Source: an uncultured Candidatus Saccharibacteria bacterium | GTDB lineage: Bacteria; Patescibacteriota; Doudnabacteria; UBA920 | Length of the DNA stretch: 64,000 nt | Assembly: GCA_964436545.1 (NCBI GenBank) | Contig: CAYTCJ010000005.1 | Coordinates: 12,713-76,712 of the forward strand | Direction: 5' to 3' | Made by a program: the position numbers and the translations under genes | Shown: piece by piece, positions 6,337 to 61,646 of the stretch | Numbering within the stretch: position 1 is the stretch's first letter | How the letters are laid out: each line of letters begins with the position of its first letter | Notes under the pieces: model-generated | What the model was told of the DNA's origin: nothing | Databases searched by the model: none | What the model saw: the letters and a program-made list of their open reading frames with translations, nothing else

Positions 6337-8475
6337 ATGTTAGATAATAAAAATAAATTGAGGTTTAATGTTTTTTTCGGTTTGGTGTGTTTGGCGTTAA
6401 CTTCACCTTTGTGGGTGAGTAAACAATTATTATTCCCTTATGTCACCACCAAGGCATTTGTTTTGCGTTTGGCCATAGAGTTGGCTTTGCCATTTTATGC
6501 GTATTTTCTACTTACTCATCCTCAGAGTCGACCGAACCTTAAAAGTCCGCTAAATTTTGCTGTGGTTGGATTTGTGTTAACCACTTGGCTTTCTGCATTT
6601 TTTGGAGAAAATCTAATTAAGAGTGTTTTTGGTAATTTTGAAAGAATGGGGGGAGCCTTGTATGTGACTCATTTAGCCTTATTGTATTTTTATATTATTT
6701 TTTTGGGTCAAACGGCCTCCAAATATTTATTTCGCATACTGCAATTTTTTATTTTGGTTAGTTTTGTAATTTGTACCAATGGCGTGGTGGGATGGCTAGG
6801 CGGACCAACTTTGGTGTTGGATCCCAGCTTACCGGGGAGGGCTTCTTCCACTTTGGGCAACCCAATTTATTTAGGGGCTTTTGCCATTGTGCCCATGTTT
6901 TTGTGTTTATATTTTTTGTTAAACCAGTCTAAACTTTCCAGTAAAATTATTTATGGAGTGTTAGCGGTTATCTTTTTTTTAGCTATGATGCAAAGTGGAA
7001 CCAGAGGGGCTTTGGTTGGTGTGTTATTGGGTTTGGCGGTAGGAGTAATTTTATATATATTTTTAAACACCAGTAAAGCATTAAAGCAAAAGGGGATTAT
7101 TTTTATTGTAATTTGTGGTGGATTTTTTGGTTATTTGTTTTGGCAACCGCAAGTTTTACCCACAGGTAGCACGGTGCGGAGGATTTTTGAGTTGCGCGAT
7201 ACCAATACCAGCTCCAGAATTATTCAATGGCAAACGGCTTTGCGCGGGTTTAAAGATTATCCGTTCTTGGGAGTCGGACCGGAAAATTATTACGTGATTT
7301 CCAACAAATATTACAATCCCGAAAGCTACCAATACGACAGAAGCTGGTTTGATAAGCCTCATAACTATCCTTTAGAAATTTTAGTTACCGGCGGAATCAT
7401 TAACTTTATTTTTTATGTCGGGATAATTCTTTTTACCCTGAAGATTTTATTGGCGTCTTATAAACAAGAGTTTTTATCTTTATTGGAATTTTGTGTTTTG
7501 GTCGCCGGGTTGGTAGCTTATTTGGGGCAAAATATGTTTGTTTTTGATACCGTACCAACCAGTGTGGCCTTTTATGTGGTAATTGGCTTGGCCGGGGTTT
7601 TGGATATTTTAATGCAGAAAAAACAAAAATCAACTGTTGTTATTCCGGATTTACCTAAAATTTTTCGGTTCTCCATGGTAGGCCTAGTATTTTTGGTAGT
7701 CGTATATAGCGGTTATTATTTAAATTGGCTACCCATTTGGGCCTCTAAAAATACGAATTATGGATTAGCTTACGCTTCGATAAATTTAGAAAAATCGGTT
7801 GGGTATTTTAACGATGTGATTAATAATCAATTTAATTTTGATGTATCTGAATCTGCATCAAAATATGCCGATGCCTTATTGCCAGCTTTAACTCCAGAAG
7901 TGCTAGCTAAATTAGATAAAAGTAAACTGCTCCAGTATTTGCAATCTTTGGAAGAATATTTAGCTTTGGCGAGTTATAAATCGCCTTTGGATCCGATTTT
8001 ATTACAAAAATTAGCCAGTGTGAGATTTCAACTGGCCTATTATTCCAATTCTTTGAATTTATTCAATAGCGCAATTACAGATTTAGAACAAGCGGTGGCT
8101 TTGGCTCCTACCCGAGTGGAGGCCAGAGAAGCTTTGGCGCAAATTCGTATTTTTCAGGGTCAAGATGCAGAAGCCTTAAAGTTAGTGGAAAAAAACGTAG
8201 AATACGATAAAGCTTATTTTAAAACACGTTGGTTGTATGCCACCTTATTAAATAAAAATAAGCAAATAGAAAAAAGTATAGAACAAGCTTCGGTAGCTTT
8301 AGCATTAGGTTATGAGCCACATACTTTAGGTGAAGTAAAATGGCTAATTGACGCGTTGGTACAAAAACAAAATTTTAAACAAGTGGTAGCTGTGTATGAA
8401 TTGGTTAATAAGGCAAATAAATTAAGTTTAGAAGACCAACAGCAGTTGTTGAAATATCGAGCTAGGGAGCAGTAG
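6337..8475 (+). CDS. Second Wzy_C (O-antigen-ligase-like) membrane protein with a C-terminal TPR region; paralogue of 855-3083
   Basis: The same architecture and near-identical loop FKDYPFLGVGPENYYVISNKYYNPESYQYDRSWFDKPHNYPLEIL. It carries the SGTRGALVGVLLGL motif and a TPR-like C-terminus (LAPTRVEAREALAQIRIFQG...). Confidence 0.7.
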   Translation: MLDNKNKLRFNVFFGLVCLALTSPLWVSKQLLFPYVTTKAFVLRLAIELALPFYAYFLLTHPQSRPNLKSPLNFAVVGFVLTTWLSAFFGENLIKSVFGNFERMGGALYVTHLALLYFYIIFLGQTASKYLFRILQFFILVSFVICTNGVVGWLGGPTLVLDPSLPGRASSTLGNPIYLGAFAIVPMFLCLYFLLNQSKLSSKIIYGVLAVIFFLAMMQSGTRGALVGVLLGLAVGVILYIFLNTSKALKQKGIIFIVICGGFFGYLFWQPQVLPTGSTVRRIFELRDTNTSSRIIQWQTALRGFKDYPFLGVGPENYYVISNKYYNPESYQYDRSWFDKPHNYPLEILVTGGIINFIFYVGIILFTLKILLASYKQEFLSLLEFCVLVAGLVAYLGQNMFVFDTVPTSVAFYVVIGLAGVLDILMQKKQKSTVVIPDLPKIFRFSMVGLVFLVVVYSGYYLNWLPIWASKNTNYGLAYASINLEKSVGYFNDVINNQFNFDVSESASKYADALLPALTPEVLAKLDKSKLLQYLQSLEEYLALASYKSPLDPILLQKLASVRFQLAYYSNSLNLFNSAITDLEQAVALAPTRVEAREALAQIRIFQGQDAEALKLVEKNVEYDKAYFKTRWLYATLLNKNKQIEKSIEQASVALALGYEPHTLGEVKWLIDALVQKQNFKQVVAVYELVNKANKLSLEDQQQLLKYRAREQ

Positions 8476-51172: not shown

Positions 51173-51723
51173 ATAAGCATTTCACCAAAAAACAAAAATT
51201 CTTTGTCGGTATGAGCGTTTGGCTCGCGTTTACTTTTTTGGTATTTGTTTATTTTTTACCCATTGAGCATAAAAGCAATTTGGAAGTCATTGAAACCATT
51301 AAGACTTTAAGCACGAAAGAACAAGGTTTATTAGCCGAAAAAAATTCCTACTTACAGGCCAAGCAGGCGTTGGATGATTTGGCCAAATTAGAAATTCAAC
51401 CAGAGAATTTTTTTAGTAAAAATATTACCTTAGTAAAAGAAATAAAAAAGTTAGAGAGTATGGCGAGAGATTTAACTGTGGAATTTACTTTGTCCGGGAT
51501 TTCCGGAAATTTACAATCTGCCACCAAGGCCCCAACTGTTTCCAATATTTTTTTGGTGCCTTATTCCATTCATTTAGAAGGAAGTCTGGATAAATTAGTT
51601 ACCTATATTGAATATTTGGAAAACTTGGAATACATAAATACAGTAAGCAGTTTGGACATTAGTGCCACCAATGATAATTCGGTAAGTGTAAATTTATCCG
51701 CTAATTTTTACGTAATCAAATGA
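51169..51723 (+). CDS. PilO-like bitopic membrane protein
   Basis: N-terminal TM helix, a coiled-coil segment, about 184 aa, overlaps the previous gene by 4 nt. Confidence 0.4.
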   Translation: MNKHFTKKQKFFVGMSVWLAFTFLVFVYFLPIEHKSNLEVIETIKTLSTKEQGLLAEKNSYLQAKQALDDLAKLEIQPENFFSKNITLVKEIKKLESMARDLTVEFTLSGISGNLQSATKAPTVSNIFLVPYSIHLEGSLDKLVTYIEYLENLEYINTVSSLDISATNDNSVSVNLSANFYVIK

Positions 51724-52010
51724 CGTTAAAAGGATTAAAAATTCAAATAATAAATCAAGTTTCCGTTATTAAAAATAATGTTTATATTTTGTTGTATTTA
51801 GTCTTGGGCGGAATATTATGTTTTATGGTTTTGGCTTTTTATACTTCTATAAAAGTTTTATGGTTACCTATGCAAACAACTCCGGAGGTTTCCGGTGCGA
51901 ATAAGGCCATTAGCTTACGGCTTGAGGATTACGAGTTCTCGGTTAAACGAATAAAGGCGGGAATTAATTTTTTACCTCCTGCACCTTTGTTTCAAAATCC
52001 TTTTAAATAA
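51720..52010 (+). CDS. Small membrane protein, possibly a pilus-associated accessory protein
   Basis: 96 aa, one TM helix, translationally coupled to the PilO-like gene. Confidence 0.3.
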   Translation: MTLKGLKIQIINQVSVIKNNVYILLYLVLGGILCFMVLAFYTSIKVLWLPMQTTPEVSGANKAISLRLEDYEFSVKRIKAGINFLPPAPLFQNPFK

Positions 52011-52099
52011 CATCTATTGAATTGCGATTTAGGCCCAAACCAAGCTTTTATTGTCCTTAGACTCGGGAAGTCATATAAAACAGAATAAGCAGTTATTCC

Positions 52100-52129
52100 T
52101 TGCATTAATTACCTGTTTTTTAGTATAAT
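52100..52129 (+). promoter_or_regulatory. Putative promoter for the tRNA pair
   Basis: TTGCAT, 18-nt spacer, TATAAT, about 54 nt upstream of tRNA-Arg. Confidence 0.3.
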
Positions 52130-52182
52130 ATGCAAAGTGTTTTAATATTGATCCTTTGCTCCTAGGTTTATAGTATTTGTAT

Positions 52183-52259
52183 GCACTCGTAGCTCATTTG
52201 GATAGAGCGCTTGGCTTCGAACCAAGAGGTAGTAGGTTCAAATCCTACCGAGTGCACCA
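52183..52259 (+). tRNA. tRNA-Arg (anticodon TCG)
   Basis: Cloverleaf with acceptor gcactcg/cgagtgc, D-arm agctcatttggatagagc, anticodon loop cuUCGaa, T-arm ggttcaaatcc, and 3' CCA. Confidence 0.85.
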
Positions 52260-52396
52260 TTTTTTGGGTCAATAGCTCCCTCCTTCCACCGTCGCCAAGG
52301 CTATAGTGGACAAATTGCCGAGGCTACAGAGGGCGAGACGTTAAAATATCATTTTTAATTTGAGTAGTCTTGTCTCGCGAAGTATTTACGAAGTAG

Positions 52397-52472
52397 GGGT
52401 CGGTAGCTCAGTTGGTAGAGCAGCGGACTCTTAATCCGCTTGTCGTGGGTTCGATCCCCACCCGACCCACCA
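52397..52472 (+). tRNA. tRNA-Lys (anticodon CTT)
   Basis: Acceptor gggtcgg/ccgaccc, D-arm tagctcagttggtagagc, anticodon loop cuCUUaa, T-arm gtgggttcgatccccac, CCA. Confidence 0.85.
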
Positions 52473-52647
52473 CTTCTTCGCTCCTTTGGAGCTATGAAGT
52501 GCAAGCACTTATTGATTGTTGACAAAAAATTTATATTTGATAAGCTATAGGTAATATGTTGAATTTACAAGCACAATCTACTAAGAAGACACTCATTGAC
52601 CCGTTTTCGAGTCAGTAGTGTTTAAGTTGTAACTAAACTAAACTTTA

Positions 52648-52676
52648 CTGCCCCAAAACGGGGCAGTTTTTTTATT
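52648..52676 (+). terminator. Rho-independent terminator
   Basis: ctgcccc-aaaac-ggggcag followed by ttttttt. Confidence 0.55.
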
Positions 52677-52831
52677 TTTTTATGGGACAAATTACCATTC
52701 AAATTACCAAAAACAAACAAAAGGCATCTGTAAAGATGCGTTTTGGTTTTGGTAATAGATGGTTTTGGATTTTAGATAAATCTTTCTCCACCTGCTGCCA
52801 AAACAGCAAGGACAATTTAAAGGAGAAATCA

Positions 52832-53818
52832 ATGAATATTGCTATCGTAGGTGCGACTGGCGCCGTTGGGCAGGAGATGCTCAAGGTGTTAGAAGTCAGG
52901 CGTTTTCCTGTGTGGCGCTTGTCGCTTCTGGCATCCGCGCGTTCCGTGGGCAAGAAGTTAAATTTCTGTGGGCAGGACATCGCCATCACCGAGCTGACTC
53001 AGGATTCGTTCAAGGGCATTGACATAGCGCTCTTTAGCGCTGGTGGGAGGGTTTCCAAGGAGTTTGCTTCGCACGCGGTGCGGGCAGGCTCTATAGTGAT
53101 TGACAACTCCAGCGCGTTTCGGCAGGACCCCGAGGTGCCACTCGTGGTGCCGGAAATCAACGCCAAGGACATGAAGTGGCACAAAGGAATCATCGCCAAC
53201 CCGAACTGCACCACGGCCATCACACTCATGGCACTTTGGCCACTGCACCAGTCGTTCGGCGTGAAGCGCATCTTTGCCTCCAGCTACCAAGCCGTCTCCG
53301 GTACGGGCGCCAAGGCAATTGAGGAACTGAAGCGTCAGGTCGGCCAGATCGCCAATGGCCAGCCGGTGACGAAGGAAGTTTATCCGCACCAGATCGCCTT
53401 CAACGTCCTGCCCCACGTGGACTCGTTTCTCGACACCGGCTATACGAGGGAGGAGATAAAGATGCAGAACGAAGGGCGAAAGATTATGCACCACGCGACG
53501 TTCCGCGCGAGCGTGACATGCGTGCGCGTGCCCGTATATCGGGCGCATTCGGTCGCAGTGAGCGCGGAGTTTGAAAGGCCGGTGACGGTGGAGGAGGCGC
53601 GCGCGGTGTTGGCAAGAGCGTCGGGGTTGGATGTTCTCGATGACCCGGCGAACAACATTTATCCAATGCCACTGGATGTGGCAGGTCGGGACAACTGCGC
53701 CGTGGGTCGGCTCCGTCTTGATTGCGCACTGGACAACGGTCTCACCTTCTGGGTCTGTGGAGACCAGCTCCTCAAAGGCGCGGCGCTCAATGCCGTGCAG
53801 ATTGCCGAATTGCTGTAG
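52832..53818 (+). CDS. asd: Aspartate-semialdehyde dehydrogenase
   Basis: MNIAIVGATGAVGQEM and the active-site IIANPNCTTAI, with RBS aaaggag 7 nt upstream. The start was set at the ATG at 52832, since the 5' extension in the track is low-GC non-coding leader. The CDS is about 65% GC against about 35% in the flanks. Confidence 0.85.
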   Translation: MNIAIVGATGAVGQEMLKVLEVRRFPVWRLSLLASARSVGKKLNFCGQDIAITELTQDSFKGIDIALFSAGGRVSKEFASHAVRAGSIVIDNSSAFRQDPEVPLVVPEINAKDMKWHKGIIANPNCTTAITLMALWPLHQSFGVKRIFASSYQAVSGTGAKAIEELKRQVGQIANGQPVTKEVYPHQIAFNVLPHVDSFLDTGYTREEIKMQNEGRKIMHHATFRASVTCVRVPVYRAHSVAVSAEFERPVTVEEARAVLARASGLDVLDDPANNIYPMPLDVAGRDNCAVGRLRLDCALDNGLTFWVCGDQLLKGAALNAVQIAELL

Positions 53819-53828
53819 AGCAATCAAC

Positions 53829-53861
53829 CCGTAAGCTTGAGTTCCACCCTCAAGCTTACGG
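53829..53861 (+). terminator. 13-bp perfect hairpin followed by a U-rich stretch
   Basis: ccgtaagcttgag-ttccacc-ctcaagcttacgg, then caaatctttt. Confidence 0.4.
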
Positions 53862-53967
53862 CAAATCTTTTGAGTTATGGGAGAGATGTTTATTTCTCCC
53901 ATGCCCCAAAGGCAGTAGATTTCAAAAAGAAAAGGAGGTCCTCATCTACAAGGGTGGGGGCAAAAAT

Positions 53968-55296
53968 ATGATAGTTATGAAATTCGGCGGTAGCTCGGTC
54001 GCCAACGCGGAAAAGATCCGTCAGGTCTTCGAGATCGTCAAGGGCCGGCTTCCGCGGAAACCGCTGGTGATTGCCAGCGCGTTCCGCGGCGTGACGGACG
54101 ACCTCTTCAAGCTGGGCGAGGAGGCGGTCCGGGGTGTCGCCCCCTCCATCGACCCCATCCGCAAACGCCACCGGGACTGCCTGAAGGAGATGGGGCTTGA
54201 CCTCGACCTGCTCAAGAGGGAGCTGGACGAGCTTGATGTCCTGCTCAAGGGCATCTCTCTGGTCAAGGAGCTCAGTCCCCGGTCGCTGGACTACGTCGTC
54301 TCGTTCGGCGAACGGTTCTCGACCCGCATCATCGCGGCCTACTTCACGAAGCTCGGTATCGCGGCCGAGCAGCACGACGCGTTCGACCTGGGCCTTCTCA
54401 CGTCGGACGACTTCGGCGGCGCGCAGCCCCTGCCCGAGGCCGACTCCGAGATCAAGAAGAACGTCCTGAAGCTGACGAAGCTCCCTATCGTGACTGGCTA
54501 CATCGGCAAGACGAAGAGCGGGAGCATCACGACGCTGGGCCGGAACGGCTCGGACTACTCCGCCACGACCTTCGGCGCCGCGATCGACGCCGAGGAGATC
54601 GAGATCTGGAGCGACGTGGATGGCATCATGACCGCCGATCCGCGCCTCGCCCCCAGCGCGAAACCGCTCGAGGCACTCACGTTCGACGAGGCCAGCGAGC
54701 TCGCGTACTACGGCGGGAAGGTGCTCCATCCGGCCACCATCGGGCCGGCGATCCGTAAGGGTATCACGGTGCGGTGCCTCAACACGTTCAAGCCCGACCA
54801 CCCCGGCACGGTGATCGTCTCCAGGATCAAGCAGGGCGGGCCAGCGATCAAATCGATCGCCCACAACCTGAATAACCTGATCATCACGATCTCGTCGGCG
54901 CGGATGCTCCAGGGTCACGGCTTCCTGGCCCGCATCTTCGAGGTCTTCGGTCGCCACAGGATCTCGATCGACATGATCGCCACCAGCGAGGTGTCGGTCT
55001 CGGTGACGCTCGACTCCAACCGTAACCTCGAGCTGGCCGTCGAGGAGCTTAAGAGGTTCGCTGACGTATCGATCGAGAAGGATAAGTGCATCATCTGCCT
55101 GGTCGGCGAGGGGATCCGCACCACGCCGGGGATCGCGGGCGATGTGTTCCAGGCGCTGAAGGACGCGCAGGTAAATATCTTGATGATATCCCATGGCGCC
55201 TCTAAGATTAACATCGCCTTCGTGGTGGATGACGCCGACTGCGGCCGGGCCGTTCAGGCGCTCCACCGCAAGTTTTTCGAGCGGGCTGGGGGGTAG
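53968..55296 (+). CDS. lysC: Aspartate kinase
   Basis: MIVMKFGGSSVANAEKI, the amino-acid kinase fold and C-terminal ACT domains. The start was set at the ATG at 53968 (in frame with the track ORF), removing 82 non-homologous residues. High GC. Confidence 0.85.
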   Translation: MIVMKFGGSSVANAEKIRQVFEIVKGRLPRKPLVIASAFRGVTDDLFKLGEEAVRGVAPSIDPIRKRHRDCLKEMGLDLDLLKRELDELDVLLKGISLVKELSPRSLDYVVSFGERFSTRIIAAYFTKLGIAAEQHDAFDLGLLTSDDFGGAQPLPEADSEIKKNVLKLTKLPIVTGYIGKTKSGSITTLGRNGSDYSATTFGAAIDAEEIEIWSDVDGIMTADPRLAPSAKPLEALTFDEASELAYYGGKVLHPATIGPAIRKGITVRCLNTFKPDHPGTVIVSRIKQGGPAIKSIAHNLNNLIITISSARMLQGHGFLARIFEVFGRHRISIDMIATSEVSVSVTLDSNRNLELAVEELKRFADVSIEKDKCIICLVGEGIRTTPGIAGDVFQALKDAQVNILMISHGASKINIAFVVDDADCGRAVQALHRKFFERAGG

Positions 55297-55354
55297 CCCC
55301 CGGCTCGCTCCACACACCAAAGGAGGTGATTATATAGAGTTAGGTTAAGCGAAG

Positions 55355-55414
55355 GGCGGTCATTGGTCGGAAAGCTCACAAGAGCCTACTGGGAAAGCCA
55401 TGACCGCCTTTTCC
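55355..55414 (+). terminator. Terminator-like structure: 9-bp GC stem with a large loop, followed by a T tract
   Basis: ggcggtcat ... atgaccgcc, then ttttcc. Confidence 0.4.
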
Positions 55415-55539
55415 ATTGGTAATATTTTGTGTGTATGTTAGTATATTTAGGCATAGAAGTAGGGAAAAAATTAACTCCCCCTAACCCTCTCCCATTCGGC
55501 AAGCTCAGGACATGCTTTGGAAAAGAGGGGAAGATAATT

Positions 55540-56514
55540 ATGTTATATATTTTTTTAGGTCCGGATGATTATACCAAAAAACAACACATTAAAACTCTGG
55601 TCAAAGACCTGAGTGCGGATTTGATAGTCTACGAAAAACCGGAAACTTTGCCTTACTTTTCCGAGTTGTTGGAGACTGATTTATTTAATAAACCCAAAGT
55701 TTTGGTTGTGGAGTTTTTTTTACCCGAAGTTTTAGAACATTTGGAAACATTGACTAAATCCGCCAACATCATTATTTTTTCTTTAACCGCTTTAGATAAA
55801 CGTAAAAAAGACAGCAAGGAACTACTGAGCCAGCCATTGGTTACGGTTAAAGAATTTAATTTGCCTCACGGACTGGAATTAAATAAGTGGATAATTTCGC
55901 GAGTGGCAGAACTTAGAGGGAAGATAGCTAAGCCGGCAGTAGAGGAATTAGCCATTAGACTAGGCAGGGATAATTTTAAAGAAACCAAATTTGGCGGTAA
56001 GGTGGTAGAATGGGTAGAAGCTTATAATTTGTGGCAGGTAGAGAATGAAATTAATAAGTTGCTTGCTTTTGCTCATGGAAGAGAAATCACCGAAGCCGAC
56101 GTAAAATTATTAGTGGAAAATAATTTAGAGATTGATGTTTTTTTAATTACCAATGCCATTGGGGAAGGGGATAAAGCCTTAGCTTGGCAATTAATGGAAA
56201 AATTTATTATTTTAGAAAATGAGAGTGAAGAAAAAGGCGGGATTATTCATTTAAACGCTTTATTGTCTGAACAAATGAGGAATCTTTTAGTTATTCAAAA
56301 TAGTTTAGAGCAAAAAGCTTCTGACGCGGAAATTTTAAGTTTAACAGGTTGGAAGCCGGGAAGGTTATTTATTTTAAAAAAGTTAGCACAGAAAATTAAA
56401 TCGGCCAAAATTTTAGAAATTTTACCCAAACTGGAAGCGCTCGATGAAGAATTAAAAACCTCTCAAACGCCTCCTAGGGTGCTGTGGGATTTAATTATGG
56501 CTCAGATTTTTTAA
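55540..56514 (+). CDS. holA: DNA polymerase III delta subunit-like protein
   Basis: MLYIFLGPDDYTKKQHIKTLVK resembles the HolA N-terminus (xIYLLYGEDxFL). It is about 325 aa with an RBS-like aaagagggga upstream. The start was set at 55540 in the same frame as the track ORF. Confidence 0.55.
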   Translation: MLYIFLGPDDYTKKQHIKTLVKDLSADLIVYEKPETLPYFSELLETDLFNKPKVLVVEFFLPEVLEHLETLTKSANIIIFSLTALDKRKKDSKELLSQPLVTVKEFNLPHGLELNKWIISRVAELRGKIAKPAVEELAIRLGRDNFKETKFGGKVVEWVEAYNLWQVENEINKLLAFAHGREITEADVKLLVENNLEIDVFLITNAIGEGDKALAWQLMEKFIILENESEEKGGIIHLNALLSEQMRNLLVIQNSLEQKASDAEILSLTGWKPGRLFILKKLAQKIKSAKILEILPKLEALDEELKTSQTPPRVLWDLIMAQIF

Positions 56515-57380: not shown

Positions 57381-57415
57381 AAAAAAACCCTCCGAAGTTT
57401 TGGAGGGTTTTTTAA
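57381..57415. terminator. Bidirectional rho-independent terminator between convergent genes
   Basis: aaaaaaaccctccgaagttttggagggttttttaa, flanked by an A-run and a T-run. Confidence 0.6.
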
Positions 57416-57798
57416 TTGAAGTTGATGGTAAAGTTATACATACCCATAGAACATACTCCGGTAAGACTGGTGCCGGGTTTTTGCGGAGGAATATTTATTT
57501 CAGTTGTGCCTTGTGGGGGTAAAAATTGTTTATAGCCCAAATCGGGAATTAATAAACTGGCGCTACAATCAAAAGTGCCTTGAGTATTAACCTTTAACAC
57601 AGCGGGTGTGTTGGCTTTGGCATTGGTATTTTTGGGTACGTAACCACCTTTGGCATTAATGGAAATGGTTTGTTGGTTACCCGTTATAACAACATTTTCT
57701 GTGCTGGGTGAAAGTTGAGTAGAGTCGGTTTTAAGTAGTAAGAATAAAACTGCACCTAAAAAAAATAGAGTAAAAATAATCGCGTGAGTTTTTGACAT
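57412..57798 (-). CDS. Small membrane-anchored protein, the last gene of the copper operon; possible extracytoplasmic metal-binding protein
   Basis: N-terminal TM helix (AIIFTLFFLGAVLFLLL) and a beta-rich C-terminus ending TGVCSMGMYNFTINFN (Cys/Met-rich). Confidence 0.4.
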   Translation of the reverse strand: MSKTHAIIFTLFFLGAVLFLLLKTDSTQLSPSTENVVITGNQQTISINAKGGYVPKNTNAKANTPAVLKVNTQGTFDCSASLLIPDLGYKQFLPPQGTTEINIPPQKPGTSLTGVCSMGMYNFTINFN

Positions 57799-57799
57799 A

Positions 57800-58816
57800 T
57801 TAAAAAGTAAATAGGGGTTTTATTAAACCAATAAGGCTGAAGCTGTTGAATAAATTAATTATACCAAAAATGAGTACAATTAAGCCAGCGGTTTTAAAAA
57901 AGAGATTTTTTGAATTTGGCGAGTGCAGTAATTTAACTCCAAAGCTAAGCAGTAAAAGCATAGGTAGGGTGCCGAGAGCAAAAAAGAACATAAGTTTTGC
58001 GCCCGAATAAAAATTTCTGGTAGAAATTGCATAAATTTGCATAGATTGCGTAAAACCACAAGGCAAAAAGAAAGTTAAAATCCCGGCTAGGACAGGCATC
58101 AAATTATGGTTTAGGTTTTTTAGCCAATAAAACGGTTTGGCAAAACTACGAGGTAAGGTAATTTGCAAATGTTTGGACCACACAAACACATCAATCAAAT
58201 TTAAGCCTAAAATAATTAAGACAAAAGCTAACACTAAATTGATTATAAAAGTTCCCGTAATATTCAGATTGAAAATGGCACCTAAGGCTCCAATACTGCC
58301 ACCCAATACAAAGAAGGCAATTAACCGGGAAAGATGAAAGAGCAAGTGCGGTTTTATGGTTTTTTCGGTTTTGGCCAAATTTGCCGAAAGTGATAGGACT
58401 AATCCGCCGACTACTGCCATACAAGTGGAAAGCGAGGCAATAATGCCAAGAATTAAAGCTGAGAGAGGGTTGATTTTGCTAGCATTCACTAAATTAACCA
58501 AGCCTAATTTTTGCAGAATAATAAAAATTAAAAAAAAGCCAATGGTTAATAAGCCGGCGTAAAAAAAATCTGCGTTGTTTGACTTGGAGGGAGTGTCTGT
58601 AGTGGCATGGTAGCCATAGGGCTTTAATAGCAGATTAATTTGCTCGAGTAATTTTGTGGCCGGAAGATTTTCAAAATTACCGGTTAATTCCATAAGATGA
58701 TTAGCCAGCGAGACATTGACTCGGGTTACTTCCGGCAGAGTTTTTAGTTGACTTTCGGTCAAAACCACACAGGCTTTACAGTGCATGCCTTGAATATGGA
58801 AAGTGTAGGTTTGCAT
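57800..58816 (-). CDS. HMA (heavy-metal-associated) domain fused to a polytopic CcdA/DsbD- or TauE-like membrane domain
   Basis: N-terminal MQTYTFHIQGMHCKACVVLTES (GMxCxxC). About 7 TM helices with intramembrane Cys (LSTCMAVVGG, FFLPCGFTQS). Confidence 0.5.
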   Translation of the reverse strand: MQTYTFHIQGMHCKACVVLTESQLKTLPEVTRVNVSLANHLMELTGNFENLPATKLLEQINLLLKPYGYHATTDTPSKSNNADFFYAGLLTIGFFLIFIILQKLGLVNLVNASKINPLSALILGIIASLSTCMAVVGGLVLSLSANLAKTEKTIKPHLLFHLSRLIAFFVLGGSIGALGAIFNLNITGTFIINLVLAFVLIILGLNLIDVFVWSKHLQITLPRSFAKPFYWLKNLNHNLMPVLAGILTFFLPCGFTQSMQIYAISTRNFYSGAKLMFFFALGTLPMLLLLSFGVKLLHSPNSKNLFFKTAGLIVLIFGIINLFNSFSLIGLIKPLFTF

Positions 58817-58819
58817 AAA

Positions 58820-61054
58820 TTAGAGTTTAAAACTTTTTAATCTTAAAGCATTGGCGACTACCGAGACGCTGGAAAAGGCCATAGCCAGTCCGGCAAAAAC
58901 AGGGGAGAGTGTCCAGCCTAACAGCGGGTAAAGTAAACCACTGGCAATTGGTATCCCAATAATATTATAAATAAACGCCCAAAACAAGTTTTGCTTAACT
59001 ATTCGCAAAGTAAGTTTAGATAGCTTAAAAGCTTTTAAGAGTTTGGTTAAATCCCCATGGAGTAAAGTTATACCCGCAGACTCTATGGCAATATCTGAAC
59101 CGGTGGCCATGGCAATACCCACATCGGCTTGGGTGAGCGCGGGGGCGTCATTAATACCATCTCCCAGCATGGCTACTTTTTTGCCTTGGTGTTGCAAGGC
59201 CTTAATTTTTTCCGCTTTGTCTTGAGGTAAGATTTCCGCAATTACATTTTTTACGCCGACTTCACTGGCCATGGCCTGAGCGGTTAAATGGTTATCGCCG
59301 GTTAAAATAATGGTTTCAATATTCAAATTTTTTAATTGAGCAATTACAGTTTTGGCTGTGGGTTTTAATTCGTCGCTTACAGTCAATAGCCCGATAATTT
59401 GGCTATCTGCTTCTAAGATCATTACAGTCTTGCCTTGGTGTTGCAGAGCTTGAATTCTATCGTTATGGTCAGAGGCTGTCGGCTTACGAACGTGCACGGT
59501 ATGCTCATTAATTTTACCGGTTACTCCAATGCCCGGAATTTGTTTAAAGTCAGTTACCTTTAATAAAGTCAGTTCTTGAGCTTGAGCCTGTTTAACTATT
59601 GGTTCTGCTAACGGATGATTAGATAAATTTTCTAAACTGGCGGAGTATTGTAAAATTTTTTCTTGAGTCCAAGCCGGGTTGATAATTACAATTTCTTTAA
59701 ATTGGGGTTTGCCCAGTGTGAGGGTGCCGGTTTTATCCAAGACCACGGTATCAATCCCGTTTAATTTTTGTAGGGTTTCAGCATTTTTTATTAGAATACC
59801 ATTTTGCGCACCTTTACCCACGCCGGCAATAATTGCCGTAGGGGTGGCTAAGCCCAAAGCGCATGGACAAGCAATAATTAAGACACTCACAAACGCAACT
59901 AAACCCAAAGCAAACGCTTGGTTAAGGCTTAGCCATTGACTGCCAATTATTAACCACAGGGCAAATGTCACAAATGCGATAATCAATACCGTGGGCACAA
60001 AATAATAAGAAATTTTATCTGCCAAATGTTGAATGGGGGCTTTGGAATTTTGGGCAGTTTCGACCAGTTGAATGATTTTAGATAGGAGAGTATCTTTTCC
60101 AACTTTACTGGCGATAAATTTAATGTAGCCATTTAAGTTAATGGTTCCGCCAATAACATTTTGATGAATGGTTTTGTCCACGGGTATGGCTTCGCCGGTA
60201 ATCATAGATTCGTCTATTGAGGTAAAGCCTTCAATAATTTTGCCGTCCACGGGGATTTTATCTCCGGGTTTTACAATTAAAATATTGCCCGGTTGAATAG
60301 TTTCTATGGCAACAATGTGTTCTTGTCCGTTGTGCCACAAGCTTGCGGTTTTGGCTTGTAAGCCTAAAAGTTTTTTAATAGCTTCCGAGGTTTTGGCTTT
60401 AGAAGTGCTTTCCAAGTATTTGCCAAATAAGACAAAACCAATCACTACAATGGTTACATCGAAATAAGTATAAACGGGTAAATTAAGAGTTAGAGGAATT
60501 TGTGGAAATAGAGTAATAGTTAAGCTGTATACATACGCGGTTACAGTTCCCAGTCCCACTAAGGAATCCATGTTAGCGTTACCGGAACGGACAAACAGTA
60601 CTAAGCCTTTAATAAACCGTTGACCTGAGCCAAAGAGAATTAAGCTGGCTAAAATAAGATTGATTCGGTTCCATGCTTCCATGCCTAAGGGGGGATTGGG
60701 AATTGACCAAACTAATTTGGCTAAAATTTCCCAGAGCATAGTTAAAAAAATAAACAAGGCTAAAGGAAAAGCAAATAAACTCCACCGGTCTATGTGGGAG
60801 TCGGTTGAATCGTCGGGTGTTGAGGGTGAGTTTTGGGTTTCGGAGTGAGCGCTTAGTTCATAACCCAAAGGTTTTAGTGCTTGGTTAATTTCGGGTGTAG
60901 GCAGAGTTTGGCCATTGAATTCTATATTGGCAGTTTCAGTGGCAAAATTTACTGAGGCGGTTTTTATGCTCTTAAATTTGGCCAATTGCTTTTCAATAAG
61001 ATTGGCGCAGCTTACACAGTGCATCCCGATGATTTTATAGTTTTGGTTAGACAT
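58820..61054 (-). CDS. copA: Copper-translocating P1B-type ATPase
   Basis: N-terminal HMA domain YKIIGMHCVSCANLIEKQ, the CPC motif (IACPCALGLATP), DKTGTLT phosphorylation site, GDGINDAPAL hinge. Confidence 0.9.
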   Translation of the reverse strand: MSNQNYKIIGMHCVSCANLIEKQLAKFKSIKTASVNFATETANIEFNGQTLPTPEINQALKPLGYELSAHSETQNSPSTPDDSTDSHIDRWSLFAFPLALFIFLTMLWEILAKLVWSIPNPPLGMEAWNRINLILASLILFGSGQRFIKGLVLFVRSGNANMDSLVGLGTVTAYVYSLTITLFPQIPLTLNLPVYTYFDVTIVVIGFVLFGKYLESTSKAKTSEAIKKLLGLQAKTASLWHNGQEHIVAIETIQPGNILIVKPGDKIPVDGKIIEGFTSIDESMITGEAIPVDKTIHQNVIGGTINLNGYIKFIASKVGKDTLLSKIIQLVETAQNSKAPIQHLADKISYYFVPTVLIIAFVTFALWLIIGSQWLSLNQAFALGLVAFVSVLIIACPCALGLATPTAIIAGVGKGAQNGILIKNAETLQKLNGIDTVVLDKTGTLTLGKPQFKEIVIINPAWTQEKILQYSASLENLSNHPLAEPIVKQAQAQELTLLKVTDFKQIPGIGVTGKINEHTVHVRKPTASDHNDRIQALQHQGKTVMILEADSQIIGLLTVSDELKPTAKTVIAQLKNLNIETIILTGDNHLTAQAMASEVGVKNVIAEILPQDKAEKIKALQHQGKKVAMLGDGINDAPALTQADVGIAMATGSDIAIESAGITLLHGDLTKLLKAFKLSKLTLRIVKQNLFWAFIYNIIGIPIASGLLYPLLGWTLSPVFAGLAMAFSSVSVVANALRLKSFKL

Positions 61055-61082
61055 AAGTTAAGTAAGGTTTAAAAATTCAAGT

Positions 61083-61646
61083 TTAGATTCCATACCATTC
61101 GCTTCGCCAAGTTTGGAGAATTTTTAAAGTCGTTTTTAAAAAAATGTCCACCGCATTGGCATTATTTAAAGTCTCGGTTCGGGTACTTTTTAATAAGGTT
61201 TCTTTAGTCATTCGCAAACCTTCTTCGTGGTGGGTAATAAGCGCGTTTAAAAATCTTAAATCAAATTTTTCGTCAGCTGTACCCAAATTGGCCACTTGAG
61301 GTTTTTTAACTTGCCTTTTGTCTTTGTACCAAGTTTGTTTGTAATCATAAAGTTCTTTTATGGCCGTAGGTTCGTCGGCTAAAATCTTATTAGCCAATTC
61401 CCGAATTTCCACCCGCGTGGTTTGTGTTTGGGCTTGCTCTGCTAATAACATTGCCGCCGTGTGGTGGCTAATCATGGCATTTAGGTAATTCAAATCAAAT
61501 AATTTACCCGCATTACCCAAGCTCATGGGAGTTTTATTAAACATTTCGGTGCGGTATTCCGCAGTTTGGGAAAAGCCCAGCATATAGCCGGCAATACCGG
61601 CAATAATCATAAACGCCAAAGCCAAAGGAGTGGAGATTTTATGCAT
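61083..61646 (-). CDS. DUF305-family protein, copper-resistance associated
   Basis: N-terminal TM/signal, then FDLNYLNAMISHHTAAMLLAE and FDLRFLNALITHHEEGLRMTKE, the duplicated DUF305 HH motifs. Confidence 0.7.
   Translation of the reverse strand: MHKISTPLALAFMIIAGIAGYMLGFSQTAEYRTEMFNKTPMSLGNAGKLFDLNYLNAMISHHTAAMLLAEQAQTQTTRVEIRELANKILADEPTAIKELYDYKQTWYKDKRQVKKPQVANLGTADEKFDLRFLNALITHHEEGLRMTKETLLKSTRTETLNNANAVDIFLKTTLKILQTWRSEWYGI

Follow-up and report, generated by a model that had tools for sequence, protein, structure and literature searches.

The 64,000-nucleotide stretch analysed here (the window) lies on the 95,675-bp contig CAYTCJ010000005.1 of an uncultured Candidatus Saccharibacteria bacterium and carries two genes of the aspartate pathway, asd and lysC, both intact and both downstream of tRNA-Arg and tRNA-Lys (Table 1). 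Per 1-kb bin, the guanine-plus-cytosine (GC) content of the window is 0.30–0.46, mostly ~0.36, and within it values of 57–67% are confined to a segment of ~2.5 kb (52832–55330), which holds the two genes. A profile in steps of 200 nucleotides (nt) rises on the left side from 0.40 at 52700 to 0.51–0.63 over 52800–53800, dips to 0.445 at 53800–53999, which corresponds to the spacer between asd and lysC, and reaches 0.60–0.675 over 54000–55300 before returning to 0.36 by 55400. The GC content of the islet is 0.59–0.63, versus 0.37 for the host. At third codon positions (GC3) it is 0.89 for lysC and 0.73 for asd, compared with 0.343 ± 0.035 (maximum 0.424) for 26 host open reading frames (ORFs), a separation of more than 10 standard deviations. 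An original prediction, made from the sequence alone, had described a single islet of ~65% GC beside two tRNA genes in a low-GC genome, with an antisense strand open for hundreds of codons. The composition, GC3, ARAGORN and Rfam agree on a high-GC islet next to two tRNAs, and long antisense ORFs are present at 52958–53902 (314 amino acids, aa) and 53890–55320 (476 aa); the islet is not continuous, however, since a spacer (149 nt, 44% GC) that contains a terminator hairpin interrupts it.

The Asd protein matches NF011456 (1.4e-138, 462 bits, cut-off 223) and TIGR01296 (asd_B, 438 bits, cut-off 324), aligns over its full length with PDB 2yv3 (residues 1–326, 1e-106) and keeps the NPNCTT motif of the active-site cysteine. 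A Shine-Dalgarno (SD) sequence, aaaggag, is located 7 nt before the asd ATG. The public annotation apparently over-extends this gene to 378 aa from an ATG at 52682, while the homologues and the SD favour the ATG at 52832 (328 aa). LysC (53968–55296, 442 aa) consists of AA_kinase and ACT domains, with 380 bits against TIGR00657 (cut-off 209), 434 bits against NF006570, the equivalog of lysine-sensitive aspartate kinase III (below the cut-off of 455, so that no effector among Lys, Thr and SAM is assigned), and full-length matches to PDB 2cdq (3e-104) and also 2j0w. The family matches above cut-off agree with the predicted assignment of the pair as the enzymes of the first two steps of the aspartate pathway. 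Both genes come with a ribosome-binding region and a terminator hairpin of their own, and the encoded enzymes are full-length and apparently intact. The motif AAAGGAGGT is found at 53931–53948, 28 nt upstream of the lysC ATG, and is repeated at 55319–55336 as an orphan SD; an in-frame ATC is present at 53944, at SD distance, and both the start of lysC and its translation efficiency are uncertain.

Table 1. Features of the asd–lysC locus and its flanks, in window coordinates.
Feature	Position	Strand	Description
tRNA-Arg(TCG)	52183..52259	+	ARAGORN; Rfam tRNA 73 bits; syntenic tRNA in L015 and L020; left landmark
Inter-tRNA segment, GC-richer	52267..52360	+	read from sequence; counterpart in L015 (gggtcggtagctcc...)
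tRNA-Lys(CTT)	52397..52472	+	ARAGORN, Rfam; left anchor of the variable slot
Small transcription unit (predicted)	52519..52677	+	TTGACA-like -35 box, ~125-nt transcript, intrinsic terminator
asd leader, AT-rich	52678..52831	+	nested inverted repeats 52703–52756; no counterpart in relatives
asd, aspartate-semialdehyde dehydrogenase, 328 aa	52832..53818	+	GC 0.587, GC3 0.73
Intrinsic terminator after asd	53829..53871	+	perfect 13-bp hairpin and T-run
Element U	53870..53910	+	TTGAGTTATGGGAGAGATGnnTATTTCTCnCATGCCCCAAA, internal hairpin; 40/43 identical to L015; 0/500 shuffles reach the score
Planctomycete-derived lysC body	53968..55279	+	88.6% nt identity to contig L009; GC3 0.89
Non-donor lysC tail	55280..55296	+	codons ERAGG and stop; also in the different lysC allele of L012
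GC-rich spacer with orphan SD	55297..55346	+	common to L012; end (AAAGGAGG..TATAGAG) aligns with the 3' coding end of the 91-aa ORF of L019/L013
Long conserved hairpin	55347..55419	+	arms AAGCGAAGGGCGGTCATTGGTCG / GCCATGACCGCCTTTTCCATTGG; single copy
holA leader and holA (DNA polymerase III delta; holA 55540–56514)	55420..56514	+	TIGR01128 1e-38; GC3 0.335; right slot anchor

The two genes have different nearest relatives. The best LysC matches show 85–91% aa identity (91% to P0242), and the protein falls in a 90%-identity cluster of 71 members, which includes MBV8879450.1 of a Planctomycetaceae bacterium. The named matches down to 59% are Planctomycetota, and in a neighbour-joining tree LysC is nested deep within this phylum on a somewhat longer branch. 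At the DNA level the homology to planctomycete contig L009 extends from the ATG (53968) to ...AAGTTTTTCG / ...CGCAAGTTTTTCG (55279), and none is found beyond either side. In four contexts from the planctomycete clade lysC is found in a zincin-truD-(x)-lysC-302aa neighbourhood with no asd. The transfer of lysC is fairly recent, from a Planctomycetaceae-like donor. The best 120 Asd matches (an identical copy in the Logan assemblies aside) form a flat series at 78–81% identity, with the asd matches taken together at 76–82%, and the named ones all belong to Verrucomicrobiota (Limisphaerales, Roseimicrobium). The Asd of the window is on average 79% identical to its Verrucomicrobiota matches, which are 86% identical to each other, so that its branch, a long one, falls at or within this group. 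The donor of asd is Verrucomicrobiota-like, and the transfer was earlier, or came from an unsampled lineage. The Actinobacteria, Chloroflexi or Deinococcus-like donor proposed originally is therefore replaced by the Planctomycetota (lysC) and Verrucomicrobiota (asd) of the database matches, that is, by bacteria of the Planctomycetes-Verrucomicrobia-Chlamydiae (PVC) superphylum. Recent transfer, also proposed, fits lysC (89% nt identity to the planctomycete gene, partly ameliorated), but as a uniform description of the pair it is not supported, asd being much more diverged.

The substitutions in lysC were polarised with a second planctomycete contig as the outgroup. At third positions the window gene shows 35 GC>AT, 0 AT>GC and 29 neutral changes, versus 6, 1 and 32, respectively, in the sister planctomycete (Fisher p = 7e-5). 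The GC3 of lysC is 0.97 in the closest pair of donor contigs (L009 and L008), 0.91 in L004–L007, which are more distant, and 0.89 in the window; the gene is already drifting toward the composition of the host. The window-specific codon changes (53 synonymous, 20 non-synonymous) indicate that lysC is still under purifying selection.

The insertion site was characterized by comparison with relatives. The nearest relatives by holA are Patescibacteria, at 70%, 65% and 57% aa identity. The 70% match is found in a GTDB genome of an "uncultured Candidatus Saccharibacteria bacterium", where a holA scan of the genome contigs shows that the relative's contig ends exactly at holA; among proteins of metagenome-assembled genomes (MAGs) labelled Candidatus Doudnabacteria the matches are at 57% and 46–48%. 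In contig L020/L021 (Doudnabacteria GCA_016197215.1, holA 57%) tRNA-Lys is separated from holA by 58 nt, which makes the slot empty. L020 shares with the window holA and the pilBCM side; along it pilB-pilC-pilM are followed by three small ORFs, tRNA-Arg, a VTT-domain gene, tRNA-Lys and holA. Contig L015 (holA 70%) is syntenic on both sides of the slot, from glycosyltransferases to typA. Its slot contains a counterpart of the small transcription unit (small RNA unit) of Table 1, a hairpin, the 41-nt element U and a PurN-like formyltransferase gene, followed by a terminator and by an M23 peptidase gene of low GC that overlaps holA, and the same arrangement is seen in two further samples (L017 and L018). 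The PurN-like gene (L015 8416–9243, also in L017 and L018; Formyl_trans_N 2e-11) has a GC content of 0.61 in a relative of 33% GC.

In L019/L013 (holA 65%) the slot contains the small RNA unit, a 91-aa ORF (GC 0.54) and the hairpin, and in L012 the 3' end of a different lysC (GC 0.65) precedes the hairpin. As the holA genes of L012 and L019 are 97.4% identical, the slot cargo varies among strains within one species; a gene of the lysC type also occurs in a lineage with just 65% holA identity to the window. Relatives carry other high-GC cargo, or nothing, at the same site, and the tRNA-adjacent hot spot that had been suggested is borne out. Both genes are located in a strain-variable slot, delimited by tRNA-Lys and the small RNA unit on the left and by the hairpin and holA on the right.

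The right edge of lysC records an exchange of alleles. Planctomycete LysC proteins all end with ...HRKFFG[VAC], whereas the window protein ends with ...HRKFF-ERAGG. The ERAGG tail and the next ~40 nt are common to L012, where the lysC body is ~60% identical at the aa level (last 29 residues) and CCGCAAGTTTTT-GAGCGGGCTGGGGGCTAA follows this different body with the frame shifted by a 1-nt difference. From the chimeric 3' end it follows that lysC alleles have replaced one another here, with the crossover at or next to the 11-nt CGCAAGTTTTT.

The GC-rich spacer behind lysC shows no similarity to the DNA 3' of lysC in the closest planctomycete, L009. The original prediction had recognized in it an orphan SD at 55318–55327, cut off from a downstream gene of the donor. 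An SD-like site (aaggaggtga) is indeed present, at 55320–55329, but a remnant of the nearest donor finds no support in L009 homology. The interpretation as the SD of the donor's next gene was rejected for the nearest donors, since the homology to L009 stops at ...TTTTTCG. Because it is common to L012 and unlike the downstream DNA of L009, the orphan SD is inherited DNA at the right-hand end of the slot, and either a previous occupant or a previous donor of lysC could have left it behind. The arms of the hairpin that follows are identical in the window, L012, L013 and L019, with a variable apex and 86–88% identity over the whole element. Judged from its structure and conservation, the hairpin probably terminates transcription of the cargo and forms the right-hand boundary of the slot. 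For holA the public annotation also appears over-extended, to 359 aa (55429–56514), while the relatives have 324 aa (ATG 55540).

The 149-nt spacer between asd and lysC contains element U. Its pattern matches only directly upstream of lysC here and of the PurN-like gene in L015/L017, and we interpret it, from this distribution, as a host-lineage non-coding element. The single islet of the original prediction must accordingly be divided, as the genes differ in phylum, GC3 and divergence and have a host-lineage element between them. The differences in GC3 (0.73 vs 0.89), nearest identity (81% vs 91%) and phylum, together with element U between the genes, argue for two events, and with a probability of about 0.78 we interpret the islet as two single-gene imports, of a planctomycete-like lysC and a verrucomicrobial-like asd, in a strain-variable, tRNA-adjacent slot of a low-GC Patescibacteria genome. 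Transfer of a whole asd–lysC operon at once, out of one unsampled PVC donor of high GC, would account for adjacent genes on the same strand that encode consecutive steps, and for nearest groups that both fall within the PVC superphylum; the flat ~80% asd matches also imply that the true donor of asd is unsampled. The same GC3 and identity differences are difficult to reconcile with such an operon, the closest lysC relatives (85–91%) have a conserved neighbourhood without asd, the 44% GC spacer holds an element that precedes an unrelated gene in L015, and lysC alleles turn over independently (L012). We consider a single transfer improbable. A repeated cassette leader before each gene was also tried and rejected: the asd leader is unlike element U, with 244/500 shuffles scoring equally well.

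On the left side, the small unit is 88–89% identical at the nt level to L015 (8122–8275) and L019 (75–235), compared with only 69–72% for holA. It is present in every filled version of the slot and missing from the empty slot of L020, and occurs as a single copy in the window. Its terminator consists of a stem at 52647–52667 and a T-run, and the consensus fold of the transcript includes a stable internal hairpin. No Rfam family matches the unit, which we regard as a candidate small RNA on the basis of its predicted signals. It contains a 20-codon micro-ORF (52556–52618, MLNLQAQSTKKTLIDPFSSQ), for which ~2 synonymous and ~7 non-synonymous differences were counted by hand in a three-lineage alignment. 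A threonine/lysine leader peptide was considered and rejected, given the non-synonymous excess and the presence of the unit before unrelated cargo; the region is more likely an element acting at the RNA level than a peptide, as far as its pattern of changes can indicate. A riboswitch or leader RNA preceding either gene was considered and rejected, as Rfam (E<=1, over 51500–56000) returned the two tRNAs and chance-level matches only, and no third tRNA was found in the window by ARAGORN or Rfam. The flank elements have no match among the IMG/VR viral contigs.

Pfam and NCBIfam scans covered most window ORFs of at least 120 aa, a few small ORFs being left out. No integrase or transposase was found among the ORFs scanned or the genes called in L015 and L020, and no flanking direct repeats, att sites or tRNA 3'-end repeat in 51900–55700. 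The scans and the repeat search agree with the original prediction on the absence of an integrase and of a duplicated tRNA 3' end. By inspection, no integron cores (RYYYAAC/GTTRRRY) are conserved at the hairpins of the window, L012 and L019. These results bear on the possibility that the slot is the cargo site of a tRNA-targeting island or of an integron-like array whose recombinase is encoded elsewhere. The tRNA-adjacent position would fit site-specific capture, as would cargo that is single, ORF-exact, probably promoterless and different by strain, the conserved structured elements (U, hairpins) at the cargo boundaries and the partial tRNA 5'-end copies nearby. Such capture is nevertheless very unlikely: besides the lack of a recombinase gene, of direct repeats or an att-like tRNA 3'-end duplication and of conserved cores, element U has no copy in the asd leader and the boundary elements are single-copy.

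Under the reading as two separate imports, entry would occur by uptake of environmental or host DNA, without an integrase, and would be followed by illegitimate or microhomology recombination at the slot. A resident lysC allele would be replaced via a crossover inside conserved gene ends, and such a crossover would account for the near-exact match in length between the foreign DNA and a single ORF. Donor flanks of no use would then be lost, and relatives could swap the cargo by homologous recombination within the conserved flanks. The general view is that Patescibacteria take up DNA. The pilus genes adjoining the slot are weak evidence for DNA uptake.

The original prediction had offered a metagenomic mis-join as its alternative. 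Logan contig SRR11567520_600966 (L001, 3074 bp) is 100% identical to window positions 52443–55516 and crosses both GC junctions and the spacer, with 389 nt 5' of asd and 220 nt 3' of lysC. Its left flank (the 3' half of tRNA-Lys and the small unit) is 87–89% identical to L015 and L019, and its right flank (the hairpin and the holA leader) is 77–88% identical to L012 and L019; in L015, L019, L012 and L013, which derive from the data of other projects, the flank sequences adjoin Patescibacteria genes. The host contigs are present in the SRR11567520 run and also in a second run. With the junctions reproduced in the Logan contig and high-GC cargo on the same host flanks in relatives, the mis-join fails. 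A planctomycete/verrucomicrobial fragment mis-joined into a Patescibacteria contig during assembly or binning would give an extreme composition break, and short-read assemblies of this organism and its relatives end time and again at tRNA-Lys and immediately before holA (L001, L019, L011), which marks the region as hard to assemble, but a chimera is hardly credible given that an independent k-mer assembly yields all three junctions exactly, that the foreign parts are whole coding sequences, which begin at the start codon and reach to at most two codons from the stop, with no fragments of donor neighbour genes, that two donor phyla would require at least three mis-joins at the edges of coding sequences, joined by host-lineage spacers (element U), that relatives from other projects have high-GC cargo on the same flanks, and that in lysC the GC>AT drift is specific to the window and the 3' tail is hybrid. 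The two-gene islet is a genuine horizontal transfer into a low-GC, reduced-genome Patescibacteria host. The assembly breaks occur at the same places (window 52443 and 55516, the start of L019 and the start of L011), which fits co-occurring strains with shared anchors and different slot content.

As judged from their families, LysC and Asd would take aspartate by way of aspartyl-phosphate to aspartate semialdehyde. The latter is the branch-point precursor of diaminopimelate (DAP)/lysine, threonine and methionine, and the products would feed the downstream DAP, lysine and threonine pathway. The "metabolic patch" for a reduced genome, put forward in the original prediction, is plausible.

Several points weigh against our interpretation of two imports into this host. 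No dapA, dapB, hom, thr or lysA gene was detected in the 64 kb by the scans described above. The good SD of lysC is 28 nt from the ATG, too far for a normal SD, and the expression signals are less than ideal. The Logan contig and the MAG may share their source reads, and the contig ends inside tRNA-Lys and 24 nt before holA, reaching no host protein gene. Because it ends short, the linkage to host protein genes rests on homology of the flanks with relatives and not on a single continuous, independent contig. An unsampled PVC donor with adjacent asd and lysC may exist. The trees are neighbour-joining or identity-based only, the taxon labels are those of MAG annotations, and the close fit of both foreign segments to the ends of their ORFs is accounted for by inference alone.

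Horizontal gene transfer (HGT) islands and single-gene transfers have been documented in Patescibacteria (Gios et al. 2025, PMC12455944), and a preprint describes lysC and asd as enriched in one Saccharimonadia genus (bioRxiv 10.64898/2026.09.16.751625). The present locus resembles the reported cases in the acquisition of metabolic genes of a foreign phylum despite streamlining, and some lineages have lysC and asd; it differs in that the donor is resolved per gene, the slot has been defined along with its empty form, and both the replacement of alleles and the ongoing amelioration are documented. Like tRNA-adjacent genomic islands, it combines foreign composition and phylogeny, tRNA neighbours and presence or absence among relatives. 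It is, however, only ~2.5 kb long, with no integrase, att duplication or mobility genes found, and the cargo, single ORFs from different donors, begins ~200–360 nt past the tRNA, beyond the small RNA unit.

Streamlined free-living bacteria such as Prochlorococcus and SAR11 have flexible (replacement) islands, hypervariable regions that are exchanged by homologous recombination in conserved flanks. The slot is similar to these in that its flanks are conserved, no dedicated recombinase was found, and the cargo differs behind 97% identical flanking genes (L012 vs L019). Those islands hold gene sets for surface structures with native composition, whereas the cargo here, one or two genes for biosynthesis with a strongly deviating GC content, comes from other phyla. 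With integron cassettes it shares ORF-exact, apparently promoterless single genes in tandem and structured boundary elements; unlike in integrons, IntI, attI and attC cores were not found here, and the boundary elements are not repeated units.

The locus is a clean, well-bounded case of an ultra-small, streamlined bacterium of the Candidate Phyla Radiation regaining metabolic steps. Single foreign ORFs of different phyla stand side by side, one of them caught while ameliorating and in allele replacement, and an extreme GC break in a MAG is shown to be real by comparative data alone. Current views are unchanged, as HGT and genomic islands in Patescibacteria are already documented, and the case is a fairly ordinary one of HGT. 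If the donors (Planctomycetaceae, Verrucomicrobiota) were hosts of the organism, such islets could predict the host range of uncultivated Patescibacteria. More speculatively, and rather doubtfully, the tRNA-Lys/holA slot could act as an integrase-independent landing pad, in which the conserved small RNA unit, element U and the terminal hairpin would supply expression and termination signals and a Doudnabacteria-like lineage would repeatedly sample single biosynthetic ORFs from high-GC PVC bacteria, possibly the physical hosts of the episymbiont, so that the lysC and asd module would have been built piecewise from two phyla.

Further irregularities are found between the two tRNA genes. A degenerate copy of the tRNA-Lys 5' end (gggtcaatagctcc, 52267–52280) opens the inter-tRNA segment, upstream of tRNA-Lys, and the segment is possibly a recombination scar or a pseudo-tRNA. 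The L015 counterpart is at 7871–7960, and in this contig a 17-nt copy of the tRNA-Arg 5' end (7693–7709) is located just upstream of tRNA-Arg, which is flanked by the inverted repeat gccccgttactcatg / catgagtaacggggtg. In L020 the VTT-domain gene sits between the two tRNAs. These oddities may be scars of earlier rearrangements, or mark a second variable slot.

The remainder of the window comprises a polysaccharide cluster, type IV pilus genes (pilB, pilC, pilM), a copper-resistance cluster and typA. Surface-polysaccharide genes fill 855–46152 (~45 kb), nearly all on one strand, which is large for a reduced genome. They encode two Wzy_C O-antigen-ligase-like proteins, many NDP-sugar epimerases/dehydratases, C-methyltransferases and glycosyltransferases, as well as split transketolase-like subunits, a DegT aminotransferase and a Bac_transf priming transferase. 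The copper-resistance cluster (57412–61646, - strand; cupredoxin, HMA-DsbD_2, CopA P-type ATPase and DUF305) has a slightly raised local GC content of 0.40–0.50. It is conserved and syntenic in L015 and was therefore already present in the common ancestor of that lineage and the lineage of the window.

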